Below are positions 22,962-64,000 of a DNA stretch of 64,000 nt, in pieces. Origin of the DNA: Phototrophicaceae bacterium. Lineage in GTDB: Bacteria > Chloroflexota > Anaerolineae > Aggregatilineales > Phototrophicaceae. A program made the translations under genes and the position numbers. A model generated the notes under the pieces. The model was not told the DNA's origin, searched no databases, and worked only from the letters and a program-made list of their open reading frames with translations. Location of the stretch: the NCBI GenBank assembly GCA_965262165.1, contig OZ253499.1, forward strand, positions 2,808,046 to 2,872,045. Direction: 5' to 3'. Position 1 is the stretch's first letter, and every line of letters starts with the position of its first letter.

Positions 22962-22986
22962 CTTGAATATTCAGGTCCAAAGCTTT

Positions 22987-28801: not shown

Positions 28802-28897
28802 AATTCCAAATCACAGACTAAGCTGTTACTGTGGTAAATGCATCTGGCAAAGCCGGACGATAACACTAAACTATTAGACCTGTCTACTGTCTAAGTA

Positions 28898-30728: not shown

Positions 30729-30742
30729 AAGCATGATCCGAT

Positions 30743-44135: not shown

Positions 44136-44141
44136 ATCTCT

Positions 44142-49443: not shown

Positions 49444-49470
49444 CAAAAGGGCTCACTGTCTCGTGAGCCC
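49444..49470 (-). terminator. Rho-independent terminator after tRNA-Pro
   Basis: GGGCTCAC-gagaca-GTGAGCCC (8-bp perfect stem) followed by TTTTG on the minus strand, between the tRNA-Pro 3' end and the selD RBS. Confidence 0.7.
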
Positions 49471-49482
49471 TGTACGTGCAAG

Positions 49483-49557
49483 TCGGGGTACCCGGATTCG
49501 AACCGGGGACCTCTTACACCCCATGCAAGCGCGCTAGCCGGACTGCGCCATACCCCG
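49483..49557 (-). tRNA. tRNA-Pro (anticodon GGG)
   Basis: Hand-folded from the reverse complement. Acceptor CGGGGTA/TACCCCG plus A. Anticodon arm CTTGC-ATGGGGT-GTAAG. T-arm CCCGG-TTCGAAT-CCGGG. Confidence 0.88.
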
Positions 49558-49629
49558 AACATAACATTATCATAACACAGTTATGGCAATCTGCCACCTT
49601 TCGGTCGATGGCGGATACTACCTGAGACC

Positions 49630-51213
49630 TTACCTGTCGATCGGCAATACGCCATAAGTACATGACTCATAATCCTGACCGACTATGACCTGGTAGTCAG
49701 TTTGGCGCGCCGGGTCTGCCTGTGTCTCAACCTGTTTCCTGGTCATGTTCAGCGCCTTTGTGATACCCGGTACTAAACTCCCCTTGCTCGCAGCTACATA
49801 ATCAACCAGCCGGCTCGATTCTACAGTCTCACCATTTGCTACCGGTCCAAGCGCCACGGAGTTGTAGCCATCCCAGCGCAATCGTTCGCTCGCAACCAGG
49901 TCCCAATACTCGTTGCCGGAACCGTTGTAAACGGCGATGGAAGGACCTGCCAATCCCACTTGGTTCTCCGACGGTGGTGTATAGAAGTCTCGCATTAGCT
50001 TCGTTACGGTTTCGTTTATTGGCAACAGGACAGATTCTCCGCTCGGCGTCCGCCAGTTCTGCGTATGGTATATGCGTCTAAAGGTGAAGTTTTGAATGCG
50101 GTCGAGATCAAGCTCGACCAAGTGTGGCAGAAGGCGCAGCATCGCGTCAAATGGAAAATTGGTATCGACTACCCCTTCCAGTTCGCCCCACAGCGAAGGC
50201 ACTGTGCTGATTAACCCATTGCTGCGCGCCTTGCGCCACATAGCTCGCAACAGTAATTGTTGGCGACGTCCGCGGTCCAGATCATCTGTATAGCGACGGG
50301 TGCGGGCATACCACAATGCGTCAAACCCATCAAAGGTATAATATCCGACATTCAGCGTTCGCCAGTCATATGCGCTGTTTTCTGCAACGCCAGTTTCTGT
50401 CCGAGTGACTGGATAATAATCCCGGTACGTGCAATCGACCGCGATGTCTACGCCACCGAGGCGATCTATGATGGACTTGAAGCCGGAAAAATTGGCCAGT
50501 GCGTAATAATGCACGTTGATGCCAAAATTGTAAAAAATCGTTTGCCGCAAGAGGCCGAATCCTCCGCCAGGCTGCCAACCAATATTTCTGCCGATCCCGA
50601 ACGCGGTGTTCAGCCGTCCCATTTTCCCGCTGGGAATGTAGACAAAGAGGTCTCGTGGCAAGTTTATCATCGATACTGTACCGGTTTCCGTGTTTAACGA
50701 TGCGATGATCATGGTATCTGTCCGCACGAAATTGTCCTCTGTCAGCTCATCATCGCCGCCTAGGAGTATGACATTTACCAAATCGTAGTCGCGACGAACG
50801 ACGGGTACCCGTGTGGGCACGGCAGTGCCGGAATGAACGAGACCCGCTCTTGGATCCGTGGGAAGGATTAGCCGAGGGAGATCTACAGGCTGGGGCGTTC
50901 CAGGAATGCCCGTAGCAACTGCTTCTGGCGATGGCGTAGGGGGACCTGGAGTACTGGTTAAGAATACCTGCTGCATCAAAAAGAGCCGGGATTCGTTCCG
51001 CAAACTGGCGCCGGATGCGTCTTCCGCCAGCGCTGTTCCTGTCGCCCGATATTCCTGCTGGCGAGCACTGCTGGTCGCGCCCATTTCACGCTGGCTATTC
51101 CAGAGATCCAAAACCTGAGACACTGTCCAGATCGTAGCCAGAAACAGGATAATGATGATCAGATAGAGGCTGAGTTTTAGCGATAGCCAAAGTAAGTTAC
51201 GAAGATTTCGCAT
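49630..51213 (-). CDS. LCP (LytR-CpsA-Psr) family glycopolymer-peptidoglycan ligase with C-terminal LytR_C domain
   Basis: 527 aa. N-terminal TM anchor. LCP core NVILLGGDDE...RTDTMIIASLN...VSMINLPRDLFV. C-terminal IAVYNGSGNEYWDLVASERL is LytR_C-like. Confidence 0.85.
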   Translation of the reverse strand: MRNLRNLLWLSLKLSLYLIIIILFLATIWTVSQVLDLWNSQREMGATSSARQQEYRATGTALAEDASGASLRNESRLFLMQQVFLTSTPGPPTPSPEAVATGIPGTPQPVDLPRLILPTDPRAGLVHSGTAVPTRVPVVRRDYDLVNVILLGGDDELTEDNFVRTDTMIIASLNTETGTVSMINLPRDLFVYIPSGKMGRLNTAFGIGRNIGWQPGGGFGLLRQTIFYNFGINVHYYALANFSGFKSIIDRLGGVDIAVDCTYRDYYPVTRTETGVAENSAYDWRTLNVGYYTFDGFDALWYARTRRYTDDLDRGRRQQLLLRAMWRKARSNGLISTVPSLWGELEGVVDTNFPFDAMLRLLPHLVELDLDRIQNFTFRRIYHTQNWRTPSGESVLLPINETVTKLMRDFYTPPSENQVGLAGPSIAVYNGSGNEYWDLVASERLRWDGYNSVALGPVANGETVESSRLVDYVAASKGSLVPGITKALNMTRKQVETQADPARQTDYQVIVGQDYESCTYGVLPIDR

Positions 51214-51283
51214 GGAGACTCCATAGTGTTACACGAGAAAAACTTACGCGACCCCAGAACCCTGATACTAGCGGATTGTAATG

Positions 51284-54200
51284 CTAGGGAGCCAGGAACA
51301 AAACAGGTATGTCGCAATAGCCATCTGTCGTAGGTTGGCCCGCTCTATCGACAATGCTAATACGTAGCCTGTGCAATCCAATGCCAAATATTTCGCTATT
51401 GAGTAACCCGAGAACATCGCTACTAACGGGTGCATATCCCTCAACATATTCGAAGTACTTATCCGACCAGGCGGGACGGATATCAATACGGTACATGGAC
51501 GTTTCGTGTAGTACAACTGAGCCAATGACCTCGATTATCCCGCGAATCTCTTGCATGGCAACCGGCGAAGTGATTTGCGCCAACTCTGTTTCGCAACCGA
51601 TCGCTTCTGGAGAATCGCTTTCGTTCGGAAATACAGGAATCGCTGTCGCCGGCGGAACGCTGGGGGTTGCAGGTAGCAGGAGGCTCTCCCCAGCCAATAC
51701 GCCTCGGATCGGTTCAAAGCAGTTGCCTTCTTGAATCTCGACAAGACTTGTGTTGATGCTTTCGGCAATGGCAAGCAGGGTGTCGCCCACCGCAACTTGG
51801 TACGATTGCCAATCAGGCGCCGCTTCACACGATTCAGTTTCGACCGCCCGGACGAACCCAACCGCAGTCGGCGTTGGCACCAATCTTGAATAGACAAATG
51901 GTAACATCGACGCTGTGGCACTCGGTTGAATCGTAGGCGTCGCGGTGGGCTGTAGCACAGGATCGATTTCCGTGACATTCGTGGAAGGTGTCGCCGTTTG
52001 ATCCATCGAAACAGCCTTTGTTGCAATTGCAGCTTCAGTTGCGCGTTCATCTGCTGTCGGCGTCAAACCGCTGCTCGCCGGCAAGGATTTCGTAACGGTT
52101 ACCGGGATTTTGGTCACGGTTTCGGGGACAGCGGCCGTGACGGAGTTTTCTGGAGTCTCGAACGCCGCGCCGATCTCTGCGGGTGTCTGTGCAGGCACCT
52201 CCACGACAGCGGTGCGTCCAATTGTTGTCGGTGGAACACCTCTGATTGCCGATCCGGGTGTCGGGCTAGCTTCCGCAGTCGAAGCCGCCGTGGCAGCAGA
52301 AATCGTTGATGTTGCCGTCCTATGCACAAGGGCGGTACGGCTCGCCCGTATCTCGCGCTGAACGCTTGTCGCTGTCTCCACTATGTCCAGATTGGCGATT
52401 GGGCTAGGAATGTCCGTCGTGGTTGGCGAAGCAGTGGGAGTCTCGGTCGCCGTGCGCTTGACCAGAGCCGTGCGGCTCGCTCGAATATCGCGCTGGCTCG
52501 TTTCCGTTGTAGCCACAATATCGTCAGTTGTGGTGGGGCTCGGCAATTCCGTCGTGAATGGCAAAGCTGTGGGAGTTGCGGTCGCAGTACGCTTGGCCAG
52601 AGCCGTGCGACTCGCTCGAATATCAGGTTCTACGCTTGTTGCTGTCCCCGGAGCTTCGTCGGTCGCGGTGGACAATGGAACTTCGGTCGTGGTTGGCGAA
52701 GCGGCGGGAGTTGCGGACGCTGTGCGCTTGACCAGAGCCGTGCGACTCGCTCGAATATCAGGTTCCACGCTTGTCGCTGTCCCCGGAGCTTCGTCAGTCT
52801 CAGTGGACAATGGAACTTCGGTGATGGTTGCTGCAGCGGAATAGGTTGCGGTCGCCATGCGCTTGACAAGAGCCGTGCGACTCGCTTGAATCTCCGATTC
52901 TACGCTTATTGCTGTACCCGTAGCTTCACCAGTCTCGGTGGACAATGGAATTCCGGTGGTGGTTGCATCAGCGGCGAGAGTTGCGGTCGCTGTGCGCTTG
53001 ACCAGAGCCGTGCGGCTCGCTCGAATCTCCGGTTCTACGTTTGTTGCTGTCCCCGGAGCTTCGTCAGTCGCGGCGGACAATGGAACTTCGGTCGTGGTAG
53101 GCGAAGCGGTGGGAGTTGCGGTCGCTGTACGCTTGGCCAAAGCCGTGCGACTCGCTCGAATATCGCGCTGGCTCGTTTGCGCTGTAACCACAATATCCTC
53201 AGTTGCGGTGGGGCTCGGAACTTCCGTGTCGGTTGGCGAAGCGGTGGGAGTTGCGGTCGCAGTGCGCTTGACCAAAGCCGTGCGGCTCGCTCGAATATCG
53301 CGCTGGCTCGTTTCCGTTGTAGCCACAATAGCGTCAGTTGTGGAGGGGCTCGGAACTTCGGTGGTGGTTGGCGAAGCGGTGGGAGTTTCGGTCGCTGTGC
53401 GCTGGATCAGAGCCGTTCGACTCGCTTGAATCTCCGATTCTACGCTTATAGCTGTACCCGTAGCTTCACCAGTCTCGGTGGACAATGGAATTCCGGTGGT
53501 GGTTGCATCAGCGGCGAGAGTTGCGGTCGCCATGCGCTTGGCCAGAGCCGTGCGACTCGCTCGGATATCGCGTTGGCTTGTTTCCGTTGTAGCCACAATA
53601 TCGGCAGTTGCGGTGGGGCTCGGAACTTCCGTTTCGGTCGCTGCAGCGGTGGGAGTGGCGGTCGCTGTGCGCTTGACCAGAGCCGTGCGACTCGCTCGAA
53701 TCTCAGGTTCTGCGCTTGTTGCAGTCGCCGTAACTTCGTCAGTCGCGGTGGACAATGGAACTTCGCTGATGGTTGGCGAAGCGGTATGCGTTGCGGTCGC
53801 TGTGCGCTTGATGAGAGCCGTGCGGCTCGCTCGAATCTCCGGTTCTACGCTTGTTGCAGTCCCAGAGACTTCGTTAGGCTCGGTGGACAATGGAATTCCG
53901 GTCGTGGTTGCTGCAGCGGTGGGAGTTGCGGTCGCCATGCGCTTGACAAGAGCCGTGCGACTCGCTTGAATCTCCGATTCTACGCTTATTGCTGTACCCG
54001 TAGCTTCACCAGTCTCGGTGGACAATGGAATTCCGGTGGTGGTTGCATCAGCGGCGAGAGTTGCGGTCGCCATGCGCTTGACAAGAGCCGTGCGACTCGC
54101 TCGGATATCGCGTTGGCTTGTTTCCGTTGTAGCCACAATATCGGCAGTTGCGGTGGGGCTCGGAAGTTCCGTTTCGGTCGCTGTGTGCTTGATGAGAGCC

Positions 54201-57200
54201 GTGCGGCTCGCTCGAATATCGCGCTGGCTTGTTTCCGTTGAAACCACAGTTTCCGCAGTTTCGGTGGGGCTCGGAACTTCGGTCTTGGTTGCAGCAGCGG
54301 CGGGAGTTGCGGTCGCTGTGCGCTTGGCCAGAGCCGTGCGACTCGCCCGGATATCGCGTTGGCTTGTTTCCGTTGTAGCCACAATATCGTCAGTTGCGGT
54401 GGGGCTCGGAACTTCCGTTTCGGTTGCAGCAGCGGTATGGGTCGCGGTTGCTGTGCGCTTAACCAGAGCCGTGCGACTCGCTCGAACATCGCGCTGGCTT
54501 GTTTCCGTTGTAACCACAAATTCGTCAGTTGCAGTGGGACTCGGCAATTCCGTCGTGAATGGCAAAGCGGTGGGAGTTGCGGTCGCTATGCGCTTGATCA
54601 GAGCTGTGCGACTTGCGCGAATATCGCGCTGGCTTGTTTCCGTCGTAAACACAGATTCCTCAGTTTCGGTGGGGCTCGGAACTGCGGTATCGGTTGCAGC
54701 AGCGGTATGAGTTGCGGTCGCCGTGCGCTTGACCAGAGCCGTGCGACTCGCTCGAATCTCAGGTTCTGCGCTTGTTGCAGTCGCCGTAACTTCGTCAGTC
54801 GCGGTGGACAATGGAACTTCGCTGATGGTTGGCGAAGCGGTATGCGTTGCGGTCGCTGTGCGCTTGACCAGAGCCGTGCGACTCGCTCGAATGTCGCGCT
54901 GGCTTGTTTCCGTTGAAACCGCAATATCGTCAGTTGCAGTCGGGCTCGGAACTGCGGTGCTGGTTGGCGAAGCGGTATGCGTTGCGGTCGCCGTGCGCTT
55001 GACCAAAGCCGTGCGGCTCGCTCGAATATCGCGCTGGCTTGTTTCTGTTGTTACCAGAGTTTCCTCAGTTTCGGTAGGACTTGGAACTTCCGTCGTGGTT
55101 GCAGCAGCGGGTAGGGTTGCGGTCGCTGTCCCTTTGACCTGAGCCGTTCGACTCGCTCTAATATCGCGCTGGCTTGATTCCGTTGTTACCACAATATCCT
55201 CAGTTTCGGTGGGGCTCGGAACTTCGGTCGCGGTTGCTACAGAGGTATGCGTTGCGGTCGCTGTGCGCTTGACGAGAACCGTGCGACTTGCTCGAATATC
55301 GCGCTGGCTTGTTTCCGTCGTAAACACAGATTCCTCAGTTTCGGTTGGGCTCGGAACTTTCGTTTCGGTTGCTGCAGCGGTATAGGTTGCGGTCGCTATG
55401 CGCTTGATCAGAGCTGTGCGACTCGCGCGAATATCGCGCTGGCTTGTTTCCGTCGTAAACACAGATTCCTCAGTTTCGGTGGGGCTCGGAATGTCCGTCT
55501 CGGTTGCTGCAGCGGTGGGAGTTGCGGTTGCTGTACGCTTGGCCAGAGCCGTGCGGCTCGCTCGAATCTCCGGTTCTACGTTTGTTGCTGTCCCAGAAAC
55601 TTCGTCAGTCTCGGTGGACAATGGAATTCCGGTGGTGGTTGCATCAGCGGCGAGAGTTGCGGTCGCCATGCGCTTGACAAGAGCCGTGCGACTCGCTCGG
55701 ATATCGCGTTGGCTTGTTTCCGTTGTAGCCACAATATCGGCAGTTGCGGTGGGGCTCGGAAGTTCCGTTTCGGTCGCTGTGTGCTTGATGAGAGCCGTGC
55801 GGCTCGCTCGAATATCGCGCTGGCTTGTTTCCGTTGAAACCACAGTTTCCGCAGTTTCGGTGGGGCTCGGAACTTCGGTCTTGGTTGCAGCAGCGGCGGG
55901 AGTTGCGGTCGCTGTGCGCTTGGCCAGAGCCGTGCGACTCGCCCGGATATCGCGTTGGCTTGTTTCCGTTGTAGCCACAATATCGTCAGTTGCGGTGGGG
56001 CTCGGAACTTCCGTTTCGGTTGCAGCAGCGGTATGGGTCGCGGTTGCTGTGCGCTTAACCAGAGCCGTGCGACTCGCTCGAACATCGCGCTGGCTTGTTT
56101 CCGTTGTAACCACAAATTCGTCAGTTGCAGTGGGACTCGGCAATTCCGTCGTGAATGGCAAAGCGGTGGGAGTTGCGGTCGCTATGCGCTTGATCAGAGC
56201 TGTGCGACTTGCGCGAATATCGCGCTGGCTTGTTTCCGTCGTAAACACAGATTCCTCAGTTTCGGTGGGGCTCGGAACTGCGGTATCGGTTGCAGCAGCG
56301 GTATGAGTTGCGGTCGCCGTGCGCTTGACCAGAGCCGTGCGACTCGCTCGAATCTCAGGTTCTGCGCTTGTTGCAGTCGCCGTAACTTCGTCAGTCGCGG
56401 TGGACAATGGAACTTCGCTGATGGTTGGCGAAGCGGTATGCGTTGCGGTCGCTGTGCGCTTGACCAGAGCCGTGCGACTCGCTCGAATGTCGCGCTGGCT
56501 TGTTTCCGTTGAAACCGCAATATCGTCAGTTGCAGTCGGGCTCGGAACTGCGGTGCTGGTTGGCGAAGCGGTATGCGTTGTAACCACAATATCGTCAGTT
56601 GCGGTGGGGCTCGGAACTGCGGTGGTGGTTGCTGCAGCGGTGGGAGTTGCGGTCGCTGTTCGCTTGGCCAGAGCCGTGCGGCTCGCTTGAATCTCAGGTT
56701 CCACGCTTGTTGCAGTCCCAGAGACTTCGTCAGTCTCGGTGGACAATGGAACTTCGCTGGGGGTTAGCGAAGCTGTGGGAGTTGCGGTCGCTGTGCGCTT
56801 GGCCAGAGCCGTGCGGCTCGCTCGAATCTCAGCTTCTACGCTTTTTGCAGTCTCCGGAGCTTCGTCGGTCGCGGTGGACAATGGAATTCTGGTGATGGTT
56901 GCAGCAGCGGTATGGGATGGGCTCGCTGTAAGCTTGACCAGCGCCGTGCGGCTCGCTTGAATCTCAGGCTCCACGCTTGTTGCAGTCTCCGAAACTTCGT
57001 CAGTCGCGGTAGACAATGGAACTACAGTCGTGGTAGGCGAAGCGGTGGAAGTTGCGGTCGCTGTGCGCTTGACCAGAGCCGTGCGGCTCGCTCGAATCTC
57101 TCGTTCTACGCTTGTTACAGTCTCCGGAGCTGCGTCGGTCGCGGTGGACAATGGAATTTTGGACGTGGTTGCAGCAGCGGTGGGAGTTGCGGTCGCTGTG

Positions 57201-60200
57201 CGCTTGGCCAGAGCCGTGCGGCTCGCTCGAATCTCCGGATCTACGCTTGTTGCTGTCCCAGAAACTTCGTCAGTCTCGGTGGACAATGGAATTTTGGACG
57301 TGGTTGCAGCAGCGGTGGGAGTTGCGGTCGCTGTCCGCTTAACCACAGCCGTGCGACTCGCTTGAATATCAGGTTCTACGCTTGTCGCAGTCTCCGAAAC
57401 TTCGTCAGTCGCGGCAGACAATGGAACTTCCGTCGTGGTTGGCGAAGCGGTGGGAGTTGCGGTCGCTGTGTGCTTGATGAGAGCCGTGCGGCTCGCTCGA
57501 ATCTCAGGCTCCACGCTTGTTGCAGTCTCCGAAACTTCGTCAGTCGCGGTAGACAATGGAACTACAGTCGTGGTAGGCGAAGCGGTGGAAGTTGTGGTCG
57601 CTGTGCGCTTGACCAGAGCCGTGCGGCTCGCTCGAATCTCTCGTTCTACGCTTGTTACAGTCTCCGGAGCTGCGTCGGTCGCGGTGGACAATGGAACTTC
57701 GATCGTGGTTGGCGAAGCGGCGGGAGTTGCGGACGCTGTGCGCTTGGCCAGAGCCGTTCGACTCGCTCGAATATCGCGCTGGCTCGTTTCTGTTGTTACC
57801 ACAGTTTCCTCGCTTACGGTGGGGCTCGGAATGTCCGTCGTGGTTGCCGCAGCAGGTTGGGTTGCGGTCGCTGTCATTTTCACTGGAGCCGTGCGACTCG
57901 CTCGAATCTCAGGTTCTACGCTTGTTGCAGTCCCCGAAACTTCGTCAGTCGCGGTGGACAATGGAACTTCGCTGGGGGTTGGCGATGCGGTGGGAGTTGC
58001 GGTCGCTGTGCGCTTAACCAGAGCCGTGCGTCTTGCGCGAATATCGCGCTGGCTTGTTTCCGTTGTAACCACAATATCGTCAGTTGCGGTGAGGCTCGGA
58101 ATGCCCGTCTCGGTTGCAGCAACTGTATGGGTTGCGGTCGCCGTGCGCTTGACCAGAGCCGTGCGACTCGCTCGAATATCGCGCTGGCTTGTTTCCGTTG
58201 TAACCACAATATCGTCAATTGCGGTGAGGCTCGGAATGCCCGTCTCGGTTGCAGCAACTGTATGGGTTGCGGTCGCCGTGCGCTTGACCAGAGCCGTGCG
58301 ACTCGCGCGAATATCGCGCTGGCTTGTTTCCGCTGGACCCACAATTTCCGCGGTTTCGGTGGGGCTCGGCACTTCCGTCGCTGTGCGCTTGGCCAGAGCC
58401 GTGCGACTCGCCCGGATATCGCGTTGGCTTGTTTCCGTTGTAACCACAATATCCTCAGTTGCGGTGGGGCTCGGAACTTCCGTGTCGGTTGGCGAAGCGG
58501 TGGGAGTTGCGGTCGCAGTGCGCTTGACCAGAGCCGTGCGGCTCGCGCGAATATCGCGCTGGCTTGTTTCTGTTGTTACCAGAGTTTCCTCAGTTTCGGT
58601 GGGACTTGGAACTTCCGTCGTGGTTGGCGAAGCGGTGGGAGTTGCGGTCGCTGTACGCTTGGCCAAAGCCGTGCGACTCGCGCGAATATCGTGCTGGCTT
58701 GTTTCGGCTGACTCCCCAGTTTCTTCAGTCGTCGGGCTCGGAATGTCCGTCGTGGTTGCCGTAGCGGTAGGAGTTGTGGTCACTGTCCTTCTCAAGAGCG
58801 CCGTTCGACTCGCGGGAATCTCCGGTTCTGCGCTTGTTGCAGTCTCCGGAGCTTCGTCAGTCTCGGTGGACAATGGAATTCCGGTGGAGGTTGCATCAGC
58901 GGCGAGAGTTGCGGTCGCCGTGCGCTTGACCAGAGCCGTGCGACTCGCTCGAATATCGCGCTGGCTCGTTTCCGCTGGACCCACAATTTCCGCAGTTTCG
59001 GTGGGGCTCGGAATGGCAGTCGTGGTTGCATCAGCGGGTTGGGTTGCGGTTGCTGTGCGCTTGACCAAAGCCGTGCGGCTCGCTCGAATATCGCGCTGGC
59101 TTGTTTCTGTTGTTACCACAGTTTCCTCAGTTTCGGTGGGGTTCGGAAATCCCGTCGTGGTTGCAGCAGCGGGTTGGGTTGCGGTCGCTGTGCGCTTGGC
59201 CAGAGCCGTGCGGCTCGCGCGAATCTCCGGTTCTACGCTTGTTGCAGTTTCCGAAACTTCGTCAGTCGCCGTTGTGCTCGAAATGTCCGTCGCGGTCTCT
59301 GCAGCGGCGTGAGTTGCGGTCGCCGTCTTTTTCACCAGAGCCGTGCGACTCGCTTGAATCTCATGTTCTACGCTTGTTGCATTCCCCGAAACTTCGTCAG
59401 CCGCGGTTGGGCTCGGAATGTCCGTCTCGGTTGCTGCAGCGGTACGTGTTGCGGCCGCCGTCCTTTTCACTAGCGCCGTGCGACTCGCTCGAATCTCAGA
59501 TTCTACGCTTGTTGCTGTCCCCGAAACTTCGCCAGTCGGGGTAGACAATGGAATTTCCGTCTTGGTTGGCGAAGCCGTGGGAGTTGCGGTCGCTGTGCGC
59601 TTGACCAGAGCCGTGCGACTCGCGCGAATATCGCGTTGGCTTGTTTCCGTTGTAGCCACAATATCGTTAGTTGCCGTGGGGCTCGGAACTTCCGTTTCGG
59701 TCGCTGCGGCAGGTTTGGTAGCGGTCGCTGTGCGCTTGACCAAAGCTGTGCGGCTCGCTCGAATCTCCGGTTCTAGGCTTGTTGCTGTCCCAGAAACTTC
59801 GTCAGTCATGGTGGACAATGGCACTTCGGTCGTGGTTGCAGCAGCGATTTGGGTTGCGGTAGCTGTCCTTTTCACTGGAGCCGTGAGACTCGCTTGAATC
59901 TCAGGTTCTACGCTTGTTGCAGTCCCAGAGACTTCGTCAGTCGCGGTGGACAATGGAACTTCGGTCTTGGTCGGCGATGCGGTGGGAGTTGCGGTAGCTG
60001 TGTGCTTGACTAGAGTCGTCACGGCCTCGTCCGTTTGCGTGGGCATCTTGGAGGAGGTTGCAACCGTCTCAATCTCCGTGGCCAGCAGTTTGACTACTGG
60101 CGTGCGTCTAATGGGCGCCGCAGTGCCTCTGGTCGCAGCAGGCTCCGTCGCAACGAGAGTATCGGTCGCCGGTTGGTCGACTTTCAGATCGACATCAGTT

Positions 60201-60802
60201 GGGCCAATACTGGAAACTGGCACAACTGTTGTCGTTCCATCGCGCGAGACAGACTTTTCGTCCGGCGAGTCCGTGGGCAGTATCGTTTCCGAGTCTATCT
60301 CTGGCGTAACTTGAGTTGGATTCTCAATCTCGTTGGGCTTTCGCGTTGAGAACGCGGTTGCGGCAGATGCGTCTTCAGTTGCTTTCTTCGCAAGCGCCGT
60401 CCGCTTTTCCGCTGTCGAGATAGCACGAATGTCGACAGGCGTTTCCGTCGCCCCTGCCGCCGTCGCGACAGGTGTTGCGCTTTCGCTCGGGAATGCGGAA
60501 GCGGAGCTGATGATTTCAGGCGAAGTTGTGCTTAGGGTTTCCGTAGCCGGTGGCAAATCACTCGCGATTGGCGCAATTGTCATAGGCGGCTGCGTCTCAG
60601 CGGCCGTCGTCGTTGGCGGTTCAACAGTGATTGTCACGGCAATTGCTGTGGCTGAAGGAAGCCCAGTTGCGACCGGCGTAGACGTCGGCGCAGGCAGGCT
60701 ACGGGTAGAGATCGCTAGAAGAACTGCAAAAAGCAGTGCGAATATGAGAGCCGCCAATGCAAATAGCGCGACAACGAACTCATTGCCAATGTCGCGTTGC
60801 AT
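51284..60802 (-). CDS. Giant (3,172 aa) envelope repeat protein: N-terminal TM anchor, ~57 tandem 45-aa repeats (basic core plus Thr/Pro/Glu linker), C-terminal LysM and terminal ~100-aa domain
   Basis: A single uninterrupted 9,519-nt ORF. TM helix FVVALFALAALIFALLFAVLLAI. Repeat core [DE]IRASRTAL[VAI]KRTATAT. LysM motif YQVAVGDTLLAIAESINTSLVEIQEGNCFEPIRGVLAGESLLLP at about 51671..51802. The ATG is 2 nt after the stop of the upstream kinase-like gene. Confidence 0.75.
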   Translation of the reverse strand: MQRDIGNEFVVALFALAALIFALLFAVLLAISTRSLPAPTSTPVATGLPSATAIAVTITVEPPTTTAAETQPPMTIAPIASDLPPATETLSTTSPEIISSASAFPSESATPVATAAGATETPVDIRAISTAEKRTALAKKATEDASAATAFSTRKPNEIENPTQVTPEIDSETILPTDSPDEKSVSRDGTTTVVPVSSIGPTDVDLKVDQPATDTLVATEPAATRGTAAPIRRTPVVKLLATEIETVATSSKMPTQTDEAVTTLVKHTATATPTASPTKTEVPLSTATDEVSGTATSVEPEIQASLTAPVKRTATATQIAAATTTEVPLSTMTDEVSGTATSLEPEIRASRTALVKRTATATKPAAATETEVPSPTATNDIVATTETSQRDIRASRTALVKRTATATPTASPTKTEIPLSTPTGEVSGTATSVESEIRASRTALVKRTAAATRTAAATETDIPSPTAADEVSGNATSVEHEIQASRTALVKKTATATHAAAETATDISSTTATDEVSETATSVEPEIRASRTALAKRTATATQPAAATTTGFPNPTETEETVVTTETSQRDIRASRTALVKRTATATQPADATTTAIPSPTETAEIVGPAETSQRDIRASRTALVKRTATATLAADATSTGIPLSTETDEAPETATSAEPEIPASRTALLRRTVTTTPTATATTTDIPSPTTEETGESAETSQHDIRASRTALAKRTATATPTASPTTTEVPSPTETEETLVTTETSQRDIRASRTALVKRTATATPTASPTDTEVPSPTATEDIVVTTETSQRDIRASRTALAKRTATEVPSPTETAEIVGPAETSQRDIRASRTALVKRTATATHTVAATETGIPSLTAIDDIVVTTETSQRDIRASRTALVKRTATATHTVAATETGIPSLTATDDIVVTTETSQRDIRARRTALVKRTATATPTASPTPSEVPLSTATDEVSGTATSVEPEIRASRTAPVKMTATATQPAAATTTDIPSPTVSEETVVTTETSQRDIRASRTALAKRTASATPAASPTTIEVPLSTATDAAPETVTSVEREIRASRTALVKRTATTTSTASPTTTVVPLSTATDEVSETATSVEPEIRASRTALIKHTATATPTASPTTTEVPLSAATDEVSETATSVEPDIQASRTAVVKRTATATPTAAATTSKIPLSTETDEVSGTATSVDPEIRASRTALAKRTATATPTAAATTSKIPLSTATDAAPETVTSVEREIRASRTALVKRTATATSTASPTTTVVPLSTATDEVSETATSVEPEIQASRTALVKLTASPSHTAAATITRIPLSTATDEAPETAKSVEAEIRASRTALAKRTATATPTASLTPSEVPLSTETDEVSGTATSVEPEIQASRTALAKRTATATPTAAATTTAVPSPTATDDIVVTTHTASPTSTAVPSPTATDDIAVSTETSQRDIRASRTALVKRTATATHTASPTISEVPLSTATDEVTATATSAEPEIRASRTALVKRTATATHTAAATDTAVPSPTETEESVFTTETSQRDIRASRTALIKRIATATPTALPFTTELPSPTATDEFVVTTETSQRDVRASRTALVKRTATATHTAAATETEVPSPTATDDIVATTETSQRDIRASRTALAKRTATATPAAAATKTEVPSPTETAETVVSTETSQRDIRASRTALIKHTATETELPSPTATADIVATTETSQRDIRASRTALVKRMATATLAADATTTGIPLSTETDEVSGTATNVEPEIRASRTALAKRTATATPTAAATETDIPSPTETEESVFTTETSQRDIRASRTALIKRIATATYTAAATETKVPSPTETEESVFTTETSQRDIRASRTVLVKRTATATHTSVATATEVPSPTETEDIVVTTESSQRDIRASRTAQVKGTATATLPAAATTTEVPSPTETEETLVTTETSQRDIRASRTALVKRTATATHTASPTSTAVPSPTATDDIAVSTETSQRDIRASRTALVKRTATATHTASPTISEVPLSTATDEVTATATSAEPEIRASRTALVKRTATATHTAAATDTAVPSPTETEESVFTTETSQRDIRASRTALIKRIATATPTALPFTTELPSPTATDEFVVTTETSQRDVRASRTALVKRTATATHTAAATETEVPSPTATDDIVATTETSQRDIRASRTALAKRTATATPAAAATKTEVPSPTETAETVVSTETSQRDIRASRTALIKHTATETELPSPTATADIVATTETSQRDIRASRTALVKRMATATLAADATTTGIPLSTETGEATGTAISVESEIQASRTALVKRMATATPTAAATTTGIPLSTEPNEVSGTATSVEPEIRASRTALIKRTATATHTASPTISEVPLSTATDEVTATATSAEPEIRASRTALVKRTATATPTAAATETEVPSPTATADIVATTETSQRDIRASRTALAKRMATATLAADATTTGIPLSTETGEATGTAISVESEIQASRTALIQRTATETPTASPTTTEVPSPSTTDAIVATTETSQRDIRASRTALVKRTATATPTASPTDTEVPSPTATEDIVVTAQTSQRDIRASRTALAKRTATATPTASPTTTEVPLSAATDEAPGTATNVEPEIRASRTALVKRTATATLAADATTTGIPLSTETGEATGTAISVESEIQASRTALVKRMATATYSAAATITEVPLSTETDEAPGTATSVEPDIRASRTALVKRTASATPAASPTTTEVPLSTATDEAPGTATSVEPDIRASRTALAKRTATATPTALPFTTELPSPTTTDDIVATTETSQRDIRASRTALVKRTATETPTASPTTTDIPSPIANLDIVETATSVQREIRASRTALVHRTATSTISAATAASTAEASPTPGSAIRGVPPTTIGRTAVVEVPAQTPAEIGAAFETPENSVTAAVPETVTKIPVTVTKSLPASSGLTPTADERATEAAIATKAVSMDQTATPSTNVTEIDPVLQPTATPTIQPSATASMLPFVYSRLVPTPTAVGFVRAVETESCEAAPDWQSYQVAVGDTLLAIAESINTSLVEIQEGNCFEPIRGVLAGESLLLPATPSVPPATAIPVFPNESDSPEAIGCETELAQITSPVAMQEIRGIIEVIGSVVLHETSMYRIDIRPAWSDKYFEYVEGYAPVSSDVLGLLNSEIFGIGLHRLRISIVDRAGQPTTDGYCDIPVLFLAP
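54010..54984. repeat. Copy A of a 975-bp identical block (higher-order duplication inside the array)
   Basis: The sequence matches 55606..56580 at a 1,596-nt offset. I checked both boundaries base by base (mismatch at 54009/55605 and at 54985/56581). Overlapping ORF translations in several frames are identical (e.g. 54359..54916 vs 55955..56512). Confidence 0.85.
55606..56580. repeat. Copy B of the 975-bp identical block
   Basis: Same evidence as copy A. Its upper junction (about 56575..56600) creates an aberrant repeat unit lacking the basic core (protein ...TATDDIVVTT|HTASPTSTAVPSPTATDDIAVSTE...). Confidence 0.85.
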
Positions 60803-60804
60803 GG

Positions 60805-63800
60805 CTATTCCTCGACTGTTGGCATCAGTCGCGTCGGTAAAGCGAGGTGAAAGACGCTGCCTTCGCCGGCTTTACTGTCGATCCACAGATCTCCAGCATG
60901 TGCGCGTGCAAAGGCTCTGGCAACTGTCATTCCAACACCGGTATCGCTGAGTCCTTCAATCTTGGGGTTTTCGTGCAGATACTTGCGGGCAAAGACACGA
61001 GGCAGATCATTTGCTGAGATTCCGCCACCGTAGTCTTTAATACTTATTCGAATCGTTTCGACGGCCAGGTCACGTTCTGGCGACTGCATCGAAACCAACG
61101 CCACCGTAACCAAGACGGGCGCTCCTTCAGCAGAAACATCACATGCGTTTCGAAGCAGGTGAAGCAAGACTTGCTTAATGCAATCCGGATCTACGGCGAT
61201 TCTTGGCAGATCATCGTCGACAGTCAATTCGAGCGCTAGTCGCTTATCACGGATATTAGCGGACAGCGAATTGACTGTCTCATCCAGCAGTTCCACGAGA
61301 TCAACTTCTTCATACGACAATACAAAGCTGACATGATCGTCGTGCTTTTGGCTCATCAATTCTTCGAGCATGTCCGTCAGCCGTCCCAAATTTAAGGAGA
61401 CGCGCTGCAAGACTTCGTGTTGCGCCGCGCCAAGTATCCCTATCGACTCCTTCAACAGAATATCCGTGCATTCCGATATCGCCGTTAAGGGAGCCTGTAT
61501 TGCGCGAACAAGCCCAAACGTTTCTTCCATATCGGCGAGCCGGTTTGCCGATGTAGCTCCTTCGCTTTGGTCATTTTTCTCCAGTTGAACCTGGTGAGCG
61601 GCCGTCAGGGCGGCTTGCGCGTCACCGAGTTCCAGCGTTAGCTTCTCCCGCTGTTCATTCAACAGCGAAACTGTATCTTGCAGTTCCTGCAGCCGCGCTC
61701 GGAGCGCAGCCTCACCGGACGATTCCGCAGATTCGGACAAGGATTCAGCCAAACGCGCGGTTAATTGATCGCGAATACGAAGAAGGTTGTCTCTTTCGCT
61801 AGAAAGGCCAGCGATGCCGCGTTGCAATTGCGTCCGCTGTTGAAAGCCTGTCTCGAGCTGAGCTTGCATATTTCGTATTCGACTTTCTAGTTCGCGATTG
61901 TCGTTGTCACGAGATTCGAACCGCCCCAGAATGTCTTGGTAGTCGCGCCGCATTTCTTCGCGCAGGTTTAGCAGCGAATCGTGATCCGCGCTCAAGCGTT
62001 TCAGTTGATGTTGCAAAACATCATGGGTTCGGCCATCACCTTCGACGAGTTTGGCGTTTTCACTTGCCAGGATATCGCGCTCATGCCAAATCTCAGCGGC
62101 CCCGCGTTTCAAGGCCTTTCGCTCGGCATAGAGTTGGATGAGCACCTGTGTCATGCTGCTCAGTTCGACTTCTACGCCCAGCGTTCGCAGTTTCGTCACA
62201 ATAGCGGTCAATCGCCGTTGCAATTGCTCGCGCTCCATTTCTAATTGGCGGGTTTCGGCAGAAAGCTGTTCGAGAATCGCATTCGGATCAGTGGCGGAAA
62301 TCGACTCGTTCTGGGCTCGCAGATTGTTGATTTGACGTCGCAGTTGATCGCAAACTGTTGACTGGAGGTTTTGGGTCTTTTGGGCGTATTCTCGTATGAC
62401 TTGCGCCAAGGCATCGTCGCTAACGGCACTGTAGACTTGCACGACGGTTTCGGCGTCCAAGACCAGTTTGGCATGCGCGCCGCATCGTTCCATAAGTTGA
62501 GATTGCTCATCGAACACGGTGGTTATCTGTTGCGATACGGCAACATCGTCGATTCGGTCACTCAAGTTGTTCAACATTGCGATCCGCTCGTTGTGCAATT
62601 GCGCGCGTAAGTCGGCAATTTGCAGGCGGCGCCTCACTATTTGACCCGCGCTATCTTCCAGGCTAGCTGCCAACTCACGGCGAGCCTTTTCTCGCATCTC
62701 GCTGCCATCATCTCGCGACGGCACTCGATCTAAAATGGACTGTATGGCGTGCTCTTCCGCCAGAAATGCCGCAGCCTCAGCATCAAAGCTCCAAGCCAGG
62801 ATATGACCGGCCATTTGGCAAAGATCGCCCAAAACTGCACGTTGCTGACGAGAAAACTCCCTTTGTCGATAAGGCATACAAGCAAGCATCAAAGCCAGGA
62901 CTTCATCGTTAACAGATATTGGCTGAACATACACCGTACCGGTAGCGCCGACATTCAAACTACGGAATAGCGCTTCAACTTCTTGGCTATGTTGATCAGG
63001 TTCAAGAATCCTTTGTTCGCGTCGCATCGCAGCGTCAACTAATGTAGGCTGACTGCCCAGATTTAGAGTCATGTCATCGAGACTCTTCCCGGTCACCGCG
63101 TCAAGGCCGGCGATGATGTTGGCATAATCTTCACCTTCTATGCGGAGCAACATGCAGACTTCGGCGTCCAATAGCTCGAGGGCAGTAGCGACCACCTGCT
63201 GCGGGATTCCAGAGTTCTCCCGCGTATCCATCATCATGCCCAGCGCCCTCACCAAATGACCTTGCTCAACGGGTCCTTGCGATGGGACACCTTGCGCGGA
63301 CGCGTCAGGCTCCTCAATAATAAGCGCGTCCAATCCTGGTCCCGGCGCAACAGCTCCCCCATGGACAGACCTAGGATGTGATGTTGGCTCGATTCCTTGA
63401 TCCAGGCCATGCTCGAGCGCTGCAACAAAATGCCGATGTATGACCACCGGCACTAATGCAAGCGCAGCGAGATAGGCCCAGCGAGCGCTTCCAAGATAAC
63501 TCCCTGTCACCCCGGATTCTACGAATTGCCAAGTATCCCATCCGTTGCCCAAAACAATTAGAAGAAAGAAAAGACACTTTAGAGGCGCATCGACAATTCG
63601 CCCGATATTGAATAGGGCAGCCAAAAACCCGAATAGCCCGATGGCTACAGTTAATCCAGACCATATTGGCGCCAGATCGCTTGCATTGAACATCACGTCT
63701 GTTTCAAATTCGCGAAACCATTCGTTGACGGTGTGAGCAAACAGGATCAGGATTAGGATAATCGCTACTGTCAACAAGAGGTTTGCGCGCACGCCCCGTT

Positions 63801-63954
63801 TCGCATCGCTTGAAACAAGGAACGCCCAAGAGATAATCACAATCGAGAGAGTCTGTGCTAGCCTCTCCAAAGGAGGCATAAGCAAGGACGGTTCATATGA
63901 TGAAACCAGAGAGAATAATGCGGCCACCATCATCGCTATCCAAGTGCCTACCAA
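60805..63954 (-). CDS. Sensor histidine-kinase-like protein: multi-TM N-terminus, GAF domain, ~430-aa coiled coil, degenerate HisKA (no phospho-acceptor His), intact HATPase_c
   Basis: 1049 aa from TTG 63954. The frame stays open to the window edge (64000), so the true start may lie outside. N-box LLHLLRNACDVS, G1 IKDYGGGIS and G2 DTGVGMTVA are present. The H-box reads FGLVRAIQAPLTAI, where SHELRTPLTAI is expected. Confidence 0.75.
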   Translation of the reverse strand: MVGTWIAMMVAALFSLVSSYEPSLLMPPLERLAQTLSIVIISWAFLVSSDAKRGVRANLLLTVAIILILILFAHTVNEWFREFETDVMFNASDLAPIWSGLTVAIGLFGFLAALFNIGRIVDAPLKCLFFLLIVLGNGWDTWQFVESGVTGSYLGSARWAYLAALALVPVVIHRHFVAALEHGLDQGIEPTSHPRSVHGGAVAPGPGLDALIIEEPDASAQGVPSQGPVEQGHLVRALGMMMDTRENSGIPQQVVATALELLDAEVCMLLRIEGEDYANIIAGLDAVTGKSLDDMTLNLGSQPTLVDAAMRREQRILEPDQHSQEVEALFRSLNVGATGTVYVQPISVNDEVLALMLACMPYRQREFSRQQRAVLGDLCQMAGHILAWSFDAEAAAFLAEEHAIQSILDRVPSRDDGSEMREKARRELAASLEDSAGQIVRRRLQIADLRAQLHNERIAMLNNLSDRIDDVAVSQQITTVFDEQSQLMERCGAHAKLVLDAETVVQVYSAVSDDALAQVIREYAQKTQNLQSTVCDQLRRQINNLRAQNESISATDPNAILEQLSAETRQLEMEREQLQRRLTAIVTKLRTLGVEVELSSMTQVLIQLYAERKALKRGAAEIWHERDILASENAKLVEGDGRTHDVLQHQLKRLSADHDSLLNLREEMRRDYQDILGRFESRDNDNRELESRIRNMQAQLETGFQQRTQLQRGIAGLSSERDNLLRIRDQLTARLAESLSESAESSGEAALRARLQELQDTVSLLNEQREKLTLELGDAQAALTAAHQVQLEKNDQSEGATSANRLADMEETFGLVRAIQAPLTAISECTDILLKESIGILGAAQHEVLQRVSLNLGRLTDMLEELMSQKHDDHVSFVLSYEEVDLVELLDETVNSLSANIRDKRLALELTVDDDLPRIAVDPDCIKQVLLHLLRNACDVSAEGAPVLVTVALVSMQSPERDLAVETIRISIKDYGGGISANDLPRVFARKYLHENPKIEGLSDTGVGMTVARAFARAHAGDLWIDSKAGEGSVFHLALPTRLMPTVEE

Positions 63955-64000
63955 AGCGATAGATGCAAGAGAATAACGCCGTGACGATACTTCAGCCGGA

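Follow-up and report, generated by a model that had tools for sequence, protein, structure and literature searches.

Gene layout and the LCP gene

Three adjacent genes lie on the minus strand towards the end of the window, i.e., the whole 64,000-nucleotide stretch of DNA that was analysed: a histidine-kinase-like gene, a very long middle gene and a gene for a LytR-CpsA-Psr (LCP) glycopolymer transferase. ORF calling gave 60805..63954 (1049 aa), 51284..60802 (3172 aa) and 49630..51213 (527 aa), in agreement with the coordinates in a preliminary description of this DNA. That description also had the kinase-like gene start at 63954, but the frame is still open at base 63999, and the extra residues past 63954 align with homologues that have ~55 more N-terminal residues. 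Thus, the gene is cut by the window end, and 1064 of its codons are visible (60805..63999, minus strand).

The first two genes nearly touch. Their junction (60800..60816, minus strand) reads GAGGAA-TAG-cc-ATG, with the kinase-like TAG at 60807..60805 placed, as first described, 2 nt from the ATG at 60802..60800, and the two Glu codons that end the kinase-like frame double as the Shine-Dalgarno sequence of the middle gene. The gap between the stop of the middle gene (51284) and the start of the LCP gene (51213) is indeed 70 nt (51214..51283, minus strand); it carries GGAG 7 nt before the LCP ATG and has no significant structure, its folding being on a par with that of shuffled controls (z = 0.25). 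A minus-strand scan of both gaps found no terminator hairpin, as had been reported. Terminator-like hits inside the middle gene lie on the plus strand, where every repeat unit contains a 15-nt palindrome that produces them; they were rejected as operon terminators. A promoter-like site within the middle gene (51561..51534, minus strand) could drive the LCP gene separately; promoter-like hits are no commoner here than in shuffled sequence. The transcription unit is closed by a tRNA-Pro(GGG) gene (49482..49557) and an intrinsic-terminator-like hairpin with a 9-bp stem and a T-run (49471..49448), together spanning 49448..49557 on the minus strand, which matches the tRNA and terminator noted previously.

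The LCP domain (residues 164-330) matches PF03816 over model positions 1-149 of 150 (E = 2.4e-29; 102.9 bits versus a cut-off of 24.6) and TIGR00350 (73.6 bits versus a cut-off of 62.3), and there is a weak LytR_C match. A hydrophobic segment, LWLSLKLSLYLIIIILFLATIWTV (residues 8-31), lies ahead of the domain; we infer that it anchors the N-terminus in the membrane and that the catalytic domain is extracytoplasmic. Relatives in the PDB include MsrR, TagT and Cps2A, and the motifs RTD (164-166), RD (187-188), YARTRR (302-307) and RRQQ (316-319) align with MsrR and the uncharacterised entry 3pe5, with the roles of the Arg residues being as described for Actinomyces oris LcpA (PMC6381275). The protein shares with TagTUV, Cps2A, MsrR and A. 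oris LcpA not only the LCP domain but also the N-terminal TM anchor and Arg motifs. Its setting differs: known LCP genes adjoin glycopolymer-synthesis genes or a sortase substrate, whereas this one follows the kinase-like gene and a gene for a TM-LysM protein.

The kinase-like protein and its phospho-acceptor site

We collected ~100 full-length homologues of the kinase-like protein. It consists, in order, of a 7-TM domain, a GAF domain, a ~500-residue helix, a DHp-like segment and a HATPase_c (CA) domain, and the AF2 model of the fragment (pLDDT 74) contains TM helices, the GAF domain, the 500-residue helix and the CA domain. Six TM helices of the membrane domain are visible (63391..63999, minus strand; helices 2-203 in the AF2 model) and the seventh lies beyond the window. 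Its alignment columns include the invariant motifs PPLERL, FNAS, DAPLK and GNGWD, and a profile of the 7-TM domain retrieved 402 cluster representatives, in nearly all of which the match lies at the N-terminus of an HK-like protein. The GAF domain (fragment residues 246-375; 62875..63264, minus strand) has only weak Pfam matches (GAF and GAF_2, E about 1e-3), and the AF2 model gives this region an alpha/beta fold at pLDDT 80-88. It is followed by a nearly continuous, coiled-coil-like helical region that includes the DHp-like segment (61348..62850, minus strand; DSSP helices 384-884).

At the position of the HisKA phospho-acceptor His, the alignment places Arg832 of the fragment (codon CGC, 61504..61506, minus strand). 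The H-box reads LV-R-AIQAP, compared with S-H-ELRTP in canonical kinases, and Pfam HisKA has no match in the protein. In 81 relatives the same column holds Gln (36), Arg (16), Gly (8), Glu (7), Asp (7), His (4) and other residues (3); more distant relatives of 790-920 aa have Gln as well. The HATPase_c domain (60835..61302, minus strand; PF02518, E = 1.6e-17) retains the N box (LLRNA), G1 (DYGGGI) and G2 (GVGMTVA). Its Asn, DxGxG and GxGxG columns are invariant in the alignment, and the G1 box is present in 81 of 81 relatives, the N-box motif in 72 and the G2 motif in 70. Measured against HisKA-type sensor kinases, the protein has the HATPase_c boxes and lacks both the phospho-acceptor His and an adjacent receiver. 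Where the phospho-acceptor should be, the alignment thus shows a pseudokinase, and the initial description of the protein as a kinase-like sensor needs revision, since Arg832 replaces a His that only 4 of 81 relatives keep.

Without this His the protein should be unable to run a His-Asp phosphorelay, so that the missing partner response regulator is expected rather than anomalous, although an unlinked regulator is conceivable. The preliminary description had seen no receiver gene nearby, and this stands for the wider neighbourhood: none was found in the 10 kb downstream (from the annotation of a near-identical, 98.5%-identical strain), in six genes that one relative carries in the conserved block upstream, or in 20 other ORFs scanned, a subset of those in the window. 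An upstream STAS protein was considered as a target for Ser phosphorylation by the ATPase domain, as in partner-switching, and rejected; by eye, the position of the phospho-Ser of SpoIIAA-type proteins appears to hold Asp in one relative (L008).

The HisKA phosphatase activity uses an E/DxxT/N motif. Most relatives read Q-E-L-R-T-P; since the E and T are retained in these Gln-type members, some of them might yet work on a response regulator encoded elsewhere. This bears on an alternative that we regard as unlikely but not negligible, namely that the genes have nothing to do with one another functionally and are neighbours merely because this part of the chromosome is highly syntenic: a phosphatase-only or regulator-binding kinase-like protein with an orphan response regulator encoded elsewhere, a Thr-rich surface or host-interaction protein, and a housekeeping LCP. 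The Q-E-L-R-T-P of most relatives favours it, but the R-A-I-Q-A-P of the window is also without the E and T, which makes a phosphatase role unlikely here.

There is precedent for loss of the phospho-acceptor His. In Caulobacter DivL the HK fold is likewise kept and the His replaced, and pseudo-histidine kinases of this type have been repurposed as non-phosphorelay signalling or scaffold proteins (PMC4211667, PMC9430884). In DivL, a cytoplasmic or polar protein whose partners are DivK and CckA, the residue is Tyr, whereas members of the present family have Gln, Arg or other residues at the site, are 7-TM proteins and are paired with an extracytoplasmic LysM protein.

The middle protein and the growth of its spacer

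The middle gene (51284..60802, minus strand) encodes a signal-anchored TM protein of 3172 aa, judged from its translation and from orthologues with the same N-terminus in 62 loci. From N- to C-terminus it comprises an MQRDIGNE motif and TM helix, a Thr/Ala/Pro-rich repeat spacer, a LysM domain and an Ig-like domain. The N-terminal part, a cytoplasmic octapeptide M[QR]R[DN]xGxE and a 23-residue TM anchor (60707..60802, minus strand), is conserved in the N-termini from about 65 loci. Pfam and NCBIfam scans of the whole protein gave no matches because the repeats swamp the scan, and the C-terminus was therefore scanned separately. A homologue search with the 339-aa C-terminus gave 11 matches, a poor yield probably caused by Thr-rich words filling the candidate list. 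Searching with a profile built from the 210-aa domain was more productive.

The LysM-like domain (residues ~2999-3043; 51674..51808, minus strand), with a conserved Cys on both sides, scores below threshold against PF01476 in the window protein (15-16 bits versus a cut-off of 20.9; E = 0.011-0.02). It is matched at E <= 0.05 in 13 of 21 homologues (best 1.2e-5), and AF2 predicts a beta-alpha-alpha-beta arrangement (E37-40, H47-53, H58-65, E78-81; pLDDT ~70); support for the LysM assignment thus comes from homologues and the predicted fold. The protein ends in a predicted beta-sandwich of Ig/Fn3/CBM-like type with a conserved Cys pair (51287..51604, minus strand; AF2 pLDDT 82-92), and the two domains together have four conserved Cys. 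Foldseek found no match to the sandwich model in the PDB at E <= 1e-3; the best sub-threshold matches are Ig-like domains, Fn3 and a porphyran-binding CBM, generic sandwiches that point to no particular function. An LPXTG signal or hydrophobic tail is absent from the C-terminus, which ends in ...GYCDIPVLFLAP, and the anchor is the N-terminal TM helix. The suggestion that the giant protein is a wall-associated polymer accordingly gives way to that of a signal-anchored membrane protein that is not evidently linked to the wall.

Most of the spacer is a tandem array found by TRF (52250..60019, minus strand), in which a 135-bp unit (45 aa, core IRASRTALVKRTATAT) is repeated ~55-57 times and exists as two subtypes. 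Parsing into units gave 55 motif matches, with one doubled interval and one 68-aa interval, and 54-55 copies are spaced at 135 nt. A 975-bp stretch (54010..54984, minus strand) recurs exactly at 55606-56580. The offset of 1596 bp corresponds to 12 repeat units, one of them short (37 aa), seven units lie inside the copied stretch, and the exact duplication is either recent and segmental or an effect of assembly.

We therefore considered whether the 9.5-kb ORF could be an assembly artefact, with the array mis-assembled or expanded in silico, or a decaying gene. Apart from the exact duplication, two observations point this way: two near-identical strains (L001 and L002) show the region in several frames and ~430 bp shorter, and ~25 short-read contigs break just past the kinase gene. 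However, a single uninterrupted frame of 3172 codons joins the conserved N-terminal anchor in phase to the conserved C-terminal LysM/Ig domain, intact orthologues of 1,000-2,915 aa occur in independent long-read genomes of other species, and the shifts of frame seen in L001 and L002 are as expected from indel errors, both being long-read assemblies of low coverage (20x and 3.3x by their contig names). An artefact or decaying gene is thus very improbable. When the giant gene was compared with L001 by blastn, long blocks with >=95% identity were absent, which made a unit-by-unit comparison impossible.

In distant relatives, orthologues of the middle protein are only 320-540 aa long. Spacer length varies across the family between ~100 and ~2,700 residues, with repeat periods and units that differ by lineage; at ~2,500 residues, the spacer of this genome belongs to the longest member seen. 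Here the spacer is expanded by tandem and segmental duplication of the 45-aa unit, and the family comparison indicates that the giant size is a lineage-specific spacer expansion of an ordinary 320-540 aa TM-LysM protein. It is this shorter protein, rather than the giant repeat protein proposed at first as a component of the unit, that is conserved. A universal functional repeat motif was also rejected, since 'IAPANLTLTAIRET' occurs in one subclade and 'IRASRTALVKRTA' in the clade of the window, the units of other lineages are unrelated, and short orthologues are without any.

The bacteria with a rapidly lengthening spacer are apparently host-associated; judged by isolate names, the expanded-spacer lineages appear to live with sponges or corals.

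Conservation of the module and its possible function

That the synteny should be conserved in relatives was a check proposed in the preliminary description. Among related Anaerolineae-type loci with >=9 kb of downstream sequence (n = 47), the order kinase-like protein, TM-LysM protein, LCP is kept in 46. In 62 of 80 loci, no more than 12 nt separate the start of the middle gene from the stop of the kinase gene; its Shine-Dalgarno sequence lies inside the last kinase codons for 50 of the 64 middle-gene starts examined, and this arrangement is conserved across HK identities of 29-66%. In most loci the LCP gene starts 14-80 nt past the middle gene; the gene after it differs between loci, so that the block ends at LCP. 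In distant Chloroflexota the pseudokinase and TM-LysM genes are paired without an adjacent LCP gene, amid unrelated flanks and with overlapping stop and start codons. These distant partners are Thr/Pro-rich and have two strong LysM domains (E about 1e-20). The ancient core, as far as sequence comparison reaches, is the pseudokinase and TM-LysM pair, with the LCP link restricted to the Anaerolineae-type clade.

These observations cut both ways for the independent-neighbours explanation. In its favour, unrelated housekeeping genes around the module share the extended synteny (nuoBCDI, thrB, mrp and others are strongly syntenic within the clade), so that gene order alone overstates the functional linkage of LCP. 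Moreover, the parts are separable: LCP is missing beside the pair in the distant lineages and from two loci (L078 and L081), and one locus (L031) keeps LCP without the middle gene. Against it, the <=12-nt junction with its embedded Shine-Dalgarno sequence has persisted over the whole range of HK identities, and the stop/start overlap amid different flanks would be hard to account for unless at least the first two genes were co-expressed. The proposal that the three genes form one envelope unit therefore stands in part: the order is kept within the clade, whereas distant relatives keep only the pair. An envelope role is plausible given the LCP Arg motifs, the LysM domain and the disulfide-bracketed ectodomain.

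LCP could also have a more direct relationship with its neighbour. A. oris LcpA glycosylates the genetically linked surface protein GspA, dependent on conserved Arg residues (PMC6381275). By analogy, the LCP enzyme might move a lipid-linked glycan onto the Thr-rich spacer, creating a mucin-like surface layer whose length would be tuned in host-associated lineages, with the pseudokinase as assembly scaffold or chaperone. Besides this precedent, the retained Arg motifs and the short distance between the two genes in most loci, such a glycoprotein coat would suit a spacer that is 23% Thr, 9% Ser and 7% Pro and is judged extracytoplasmic by its disulfide-bracketed end domains. However, GspA is sortase-anchored and the middle protein has no LPXTG, the distant Thr/Pro-rich partners have no adjacent LCP, L031 has LCP without the middle gene, and neither glycosyltransferase nor flippase genes occur within the block in the near-identical strain and related loci examined. 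On balance, we consider this pathway rather doubtful.

Taken together, the comparisons and structure models incline us towards an envelope module with a two-protein membrane core that would serve wall-contact sensing or scaffolding independently of a phosphorelay. The cytoplasmic octapeptide tail and TM helix of the middle protein would dock onto the 7-TM domain, and its LysM and Ig-like head, carried on a flexible Thr/Pro/Ala-rich spacer, would bind peptidoglycan or attached glycan. Wall contact, or its loss, would be relayed across the membrane to the GAF/rod/ATPase part, which would not donate phosphate but serve as a switch or scaffold that depends on ATP. The LCP gene, probably added downstream in the Anaerolineae clade, would provide an enzyme that attaches a lipid-linked glycopolymer, with the wall as the acceptor or, possibly, the Thr-rich spacer.

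Literature searches did not find a published description of such a module, which is conserved and previously undescribed in Anaerolineae-type Chloroflexota. In the WalK-YycH/YycI (WalH/WalI) system of Bacillota, an HK-type membrane protein is likewise encoded in an operon with single-pass membrane proteins; YycH and YycI have extracytoplasmic domains and act on WalK via TM contacts, the theme being cell-wall homeostasis (PMC7355866, PMC4801191). In sequence the middle protein resembles neither YycH nor YycI and carries LysM and Ig-like domains instead, the kinase-like protein differs from WalK in its seven TM helices, GAF domain, 500-residue helix and missing phospho-acceptor His, and there is no WalR-like regulator. 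As an analogy only, plant LysM receptor kinases (CERK1, NFR1, LYK4/5) also combine a Cys-bracketed LysM ectodomain, a TM helix and a kinase-type cytoplasmic module, and the distant LysM partners have a weak match to PF23473 (LYK4/5 LysM3). Here the parts are divided between two polypeptides, and the fold is GHKL rather than that of a Ser/Thr kinase.

We also entertain, as an improbable reading, the idea that the pair is a split, phosphorelay-independent wall receptor that serves as a tether or ruler at the molecular scale. Its LysM/Ig head would grip the wall or an outer glycan layer, and the length of the spacer would set or report the distance from membrane to layer. Engagement would pass through the 7-TM pseudokinase to an ATP-dependent change of the long coiled-coil scaffold, which would then position wall-building enzymes such as LCP. 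If so, the repeated, independent origin of 1,000-3,000-residue spacers would be an adaptation to life in a host, with the thickness of the envelope or sheath, or a mucin-like coat, as the adapted trait.

Little is understood about the envelopes of Chloroflexota, and most lineages of the Anaerolineae type have yet to be cultured. The presence of the three-gene block across dozens of species, with HK identity down to 29%, and of a deeper two-gene core makes a central envelope function a candidate role for the module. Given the 402 cluster representatives retrieved with the 7-TM profile, the family may be among the larger families of histidine-less kinases, and since the pseudokinase has an apparently obligatory partner that can be named from sequence, the role of pseudo-histidine kinases becomes directly testable. 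The growth of the spacer from ~100 to ~2,700 residues with unrelated units represents rapid, probably adaptive, evolution of surface-protein length, and also accounts for the breaks of short-read MAG contigs at this locus. The module is thus a candidate entry point to the envelope biology of Chloroflexota.

Gene layout and junctions

In transcription order, the three minus-strand genes encode a kinase-like protein (60805..63954 as first called, 1049 aa), a giant middle protein (51284..60802, 3172 aa) and an LCP (LytR-CpsA-Psr) glycopolymer transferase (49630..51213, 527 aa). ORF calling agrees with the positions in the preliminary description except for the kinase-like start at 63954, where the frame is still open at 63999. 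Fifteen additional residues (PAEVSSRRYSLASIALV..., 63955-63999, minus strand) can be aligned to homologues, which extend ~55 residues further N-terminally. Thus, the gene is cut by the window end and its true start lies beyond base 64000. The 2-nt spacing proposed between the kinase-like and giant genes is confirmed by the junction sequence, GAGGAA-TAG-cc-ATG, as is the 70-nt distance from the giant stop to the LCP start. This 70-nt gap contains GGAG seven bases upstream of the LCP ATG, and its folding is not above that of shuffled sequence (z = 0.25). Minus-strand terminator-like sites were searched for and none was found in either gap, as had been described; the tRNA-Pro with its own terminator was likewise recovered downstream as tRNA-Pro(GGG) at 49482..49557, followed by a 9-bp stem and T-run at 49471..49448. 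Directly upstream of the tRNA gene lies an extended -10 promoter-like site (GTGGCA-17-TG-TATGAT; 49569-49597, minus strand). A promoter of its own may drive the tRNA, whose terminator would also serve read-through from the LCP gene.

Elsewhere in the window, mevalonate-pathway genes occupy two blocks (27803-31534 and 42966-46498). One comprises an MVD-like decarboxylase, a UbiA prenyltransferase, a GHMP kinase and an amino-acid-kinase-family (isopentenyl-phosphate-kinase-like) gene; the other comprises thiolase, HMG-CoA synthase and HMG-CoA reductase. Further envelope genes at 1909-6680 and 22194-24681 encode a 1063-aa Wzy_C (O-antigen-ligase-like) membrane protein and G5/DUF348, SH3_3 and LysM-Peptidase_M23 proteins.

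The kinase-like protein and its phospho-acceptor site

In Pfam, the kinase-like protein matches HATPase_c (the CA domain; E = 1.6e-17), weakly matches GAF and has no match to HisKA. The AlphaFold model, built on 62 homologues (mean pLDDT 74), comprises six TM helices, a disordered linker, a GAF fold, ~500 residues of near-continuous helix and the CA domain; a seventh TM helix is expected beyond the window. The canonical H-box of histidine kinases is S-H-E-L-R-T-P, and alignment to canonical H-boxes places V-R-A-I-Q-A-P at this site. In the "kinase-like sensor" first described, Arg thus replaces the phospho-acceptor His. Among 81 family members the residue is Gln in 36, Arg in 16, Gly in 8, Glu and Asp in 7 each, His in 4, and Phe, Ala or Lys in one each. 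Most relatives (Q-E-L-R-T-P) retain the HisKA phosphatase-motif residues E and T, which the clade of the window organism has also lost. When used alone, the 7-TM domain profile matched 402 cluster representatives among 1.84 billion proteins. The weaker matches are 790-920-aa proteins with 7TM, GAF, (PAS), HisKA and HATPase_c domains, and they too have Gln at the His site, the sole exception being the His-containing P0257. The scarcity of His in both the 81 family members and the 790-920-aa relatives indicates that loss of the phospho-acceptor is old and family-wide. The G1 box is present in 81/81 family members and N- and G2-box motifs in most, and the alignments show no variation in the key columns of the N, G1 and G2 boxes; retention of these motifs despite loss of the His indicates that the ATP-binding domain is still under constraint. 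On the basis of the missing His, we predict that the protein is a pseudokinase at the phospho-acceptor site. The lack of an adjacent receiver gene, noted earlier, held for 10 kb downstream, six upstream-block genes of a relative and 20 other window ORFs, and is explained by the missing His.

The middle protein, its spacer and the LCP

The giant protein begins with MQRDIGNE and a hydrophobic helix of 23 residues, continues as an array of ~55-57 repeat units of 45 aa (135 bp) in two subtypes, and closes with 210 residues in which four Cys are conserved. In the AlphaFold model this C-terminal region has two parts, a beta-alpha-alpha-beta unit resembling LysM and a confidently predicted beta-sandwich (pLDDT 82-92); among PDB structures the sandwich has no match at E <= 1e-3, its neighbours being generic Ig, Fn3 and CBM-like folds. 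LysM is below threshold in the window copy and detectable in 13 of 21 homologues, and the giant protein has no LPXTG sorting signal. An exact 975-bp duplication (54010-54984 = 55606-56580), offset by 1596 bp or 12 repeat units, seven of them inside the copied stretch, points to segmental duplication in the very recent past or else to an effect of assembly. That the giant ORF as a whole is an assembly artefact is unlikely, since a single 3,172-codon frame links two conserved ends in phase. Each "SQRDIRAS" unit holds a near-perfect 15-nt palindrome (GCGCGAATATCGCGC; 54615-59636, plus strand, e.g., 54615-54629), which might favor slippage or recombination. Nine plus-strand terminator-like matches in the giant gene are spurious products of this palindrome, and its long antisense ORFs (e.g., 52322-54241, 56912-58711 and 57435-59312) result from repeat composition.

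Orthologues are 319-544 aa long in most relatives at 29-33% kinase identity and about 900-2,900 aa in the group at 35-66%; the short forms have no repeat units, and no middle protein seen is longer than the 3,172-aa window copy. Repeat periods vary by species (26, 31, 43, 45, 48, 53, 55, 56, 60, 61, 67 and 73 aa) and unit families are unrelated: "IRASRTALVKRTATAT" in the window clade, "IAPANLTLTAIRET" in another subclade and plain Thr/Pro elsewhere. Because both differ by lineage, the anchor-to-LysM spacer has expanded repeatedly and independently, and sequence comparison indicates that the giant size is lineage-specific. In two near-identical strains (L001, 839-10000; L002, 620-6698) the LCP is 98.5% identical, and the giant gene is shorter by ~430 bp, with its sequence distributed among all three frames. 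The names of these contigs give 20x and 3.3x, and long-read indel errors therefore probably account for the broken gene; decay is possible. About 25 short-read MAG contigs among L003-L051 stop 0.3-2 kb past the kinase-like gene (e.g., L003, L004, L015, L026, L032, L045 and L051), as expected from a repeat-rich downstream gene. The repeat gene breaks assemblies systematically, so most public MAGs lack it or carry only part of it.

The LCP protein matches PF03816 over the whole model (E = 2.4e-29) and exceeds the TIGR00350 cut-off, and its nearest solved structures are MsrR, TagT/U/V and Cps2A. It retains the RTD, RD, YARTRR and RRQQ motifs; LCP activity needs such Arg residues (PMC6381275). The third gene is thus predicted to encode a standard, catalytically plausible transferase, an ordinary member of its family.

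Conservation and proposed function of the module

Scanning the kinase profile against one genome per species yielded 80 loci, all from MAGs of Anaerolineae, Aggregatilineales or "Phototrophicaceae", whose identity to the query ranges from 29 to 66%; isolate names point to a sponge or coral habitat for many. Co-occurrence in relatives, set as a check in the preliminary description, was found: the LCP gene follows the middle gene in 46 of the 47 loci whose downstream sequence extends for 9 kb or more. The middle gene starts within 12 nt of the kinase-like stop in 62/80 loci, mostly at 3 nt, its Shine-Dalgarno is built from the last Glu codons of the kinase-like protein in 50/64, and M[QR]R[DN]xGxE plus a TM helix forms the N-terminus of the middle protein at all loci listed. 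In the window, the Shine-Dalgarno (GAGGA) coincides with the C-terminal Glu-Glu/Asp codons (60805-60816, minus strand), whose conservation may in part reflect this overlapping signal. The gene beyond the LCP is variable (AIRS-family in some loci, others elsewhere), so the conserved block stops at the LCP. Exceptions are L031, which has no middle gene, and L078 and L081, which have no LCP gene. In L031, a long-read genome, the LCP gene lies ~150-240 nt after the kinase-like gene (13111-13348; 152 nt by ORF call).

Upstream, relatives carry a divergent pair encoding a membrane-anchored Beta-lactamase2-family (S-x-x-K) protein and a NUDIX hydrolase, and beyond it a STAS protein, mrp, nuoBCDI and thrB. 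The STAS gene and divergent pair lie at 6930-9463 in L008 and recur at 50-71 other loci; by eye, the L008 STAS protein has an apparent Asp in place of the SpoIIAA-type phospho-Ser. This broad synteny weakens arguments for linkage from gene order only, and a rival explanation is that the three genes are independent neighbours and the response regulator is unlinked. Three distant, GC-rich relatives have unrelated flanks. In each, the kinase-like gene abuts or overlaps a gene for a 347-403-aa TM protein (L083, 3398-4609; L084, 9679-10731; L085, 9520-10563) with two strong LysM domains (E about 1e-20) in mid-protein and a Thr/Pro-rich C-terminal tail, the reverse of the window layout. Gene callers overlooked this partner in L083 and L085. 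There is no LCP gene near the pair in any of the three, which suggests that the ancient core is the pseudokinase plus the TM-LysM protein and that the LCP joined them later and is stably kept within its clade.

The comparisons establish, at the level of sequence, (i) conserved coupling of a His-less 7-TM histidine-kinase-like protein with retained ATP-binding motifs to a signal-anchored LysM/Ig protein and (ii) clade-wide gain of a catalytically plausible LCP. We propose that the 7-TM and middle proteins form a complex via the conserved tail and TM helix, and that peptidoglycan or an attached glycan is the ligand of the LysM/Ig head. Engagement of the head would be relayed to the GAF, rod and ATPase part, whose role as switch or scaffold would involve no phosphotransfer, and the LCP would link a secondary polymer to the wall. 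Another possibility is that the LCP acceptor is the Thr-rich spacer of the middle protein, by analogy with Actinomyces oris, in which LcpA attaches polymer to GspA (PMC6381275); a rival to the proposed switch or scaffold is that the module is a glycoprotein-coat pathway.

A literature search returned no description of the module, consistent with the earlier statement that no system of this composition was known, and homologues are named only "ATP-binding protein" or "hypothetical protein" in databases. Unlike two-component kinases, the module has neither the defining His nor a regulator gene in the neighbourhood searched; the closest conceptual analogues of the kinase-like protein are DivL-type pseudo-histidine kinases (PMC4211667). 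WalK with YycH/YycI is the closest functional analogue (PMC7355866, PMC4801191); the module shows no homology to YycH/YycI. The evidence for its conservation is strong. In kind, it may be a variation on known wall-homeostasis systems in which an extracytoplasmic accessory protein accompanies a kinase-type membrane protein.
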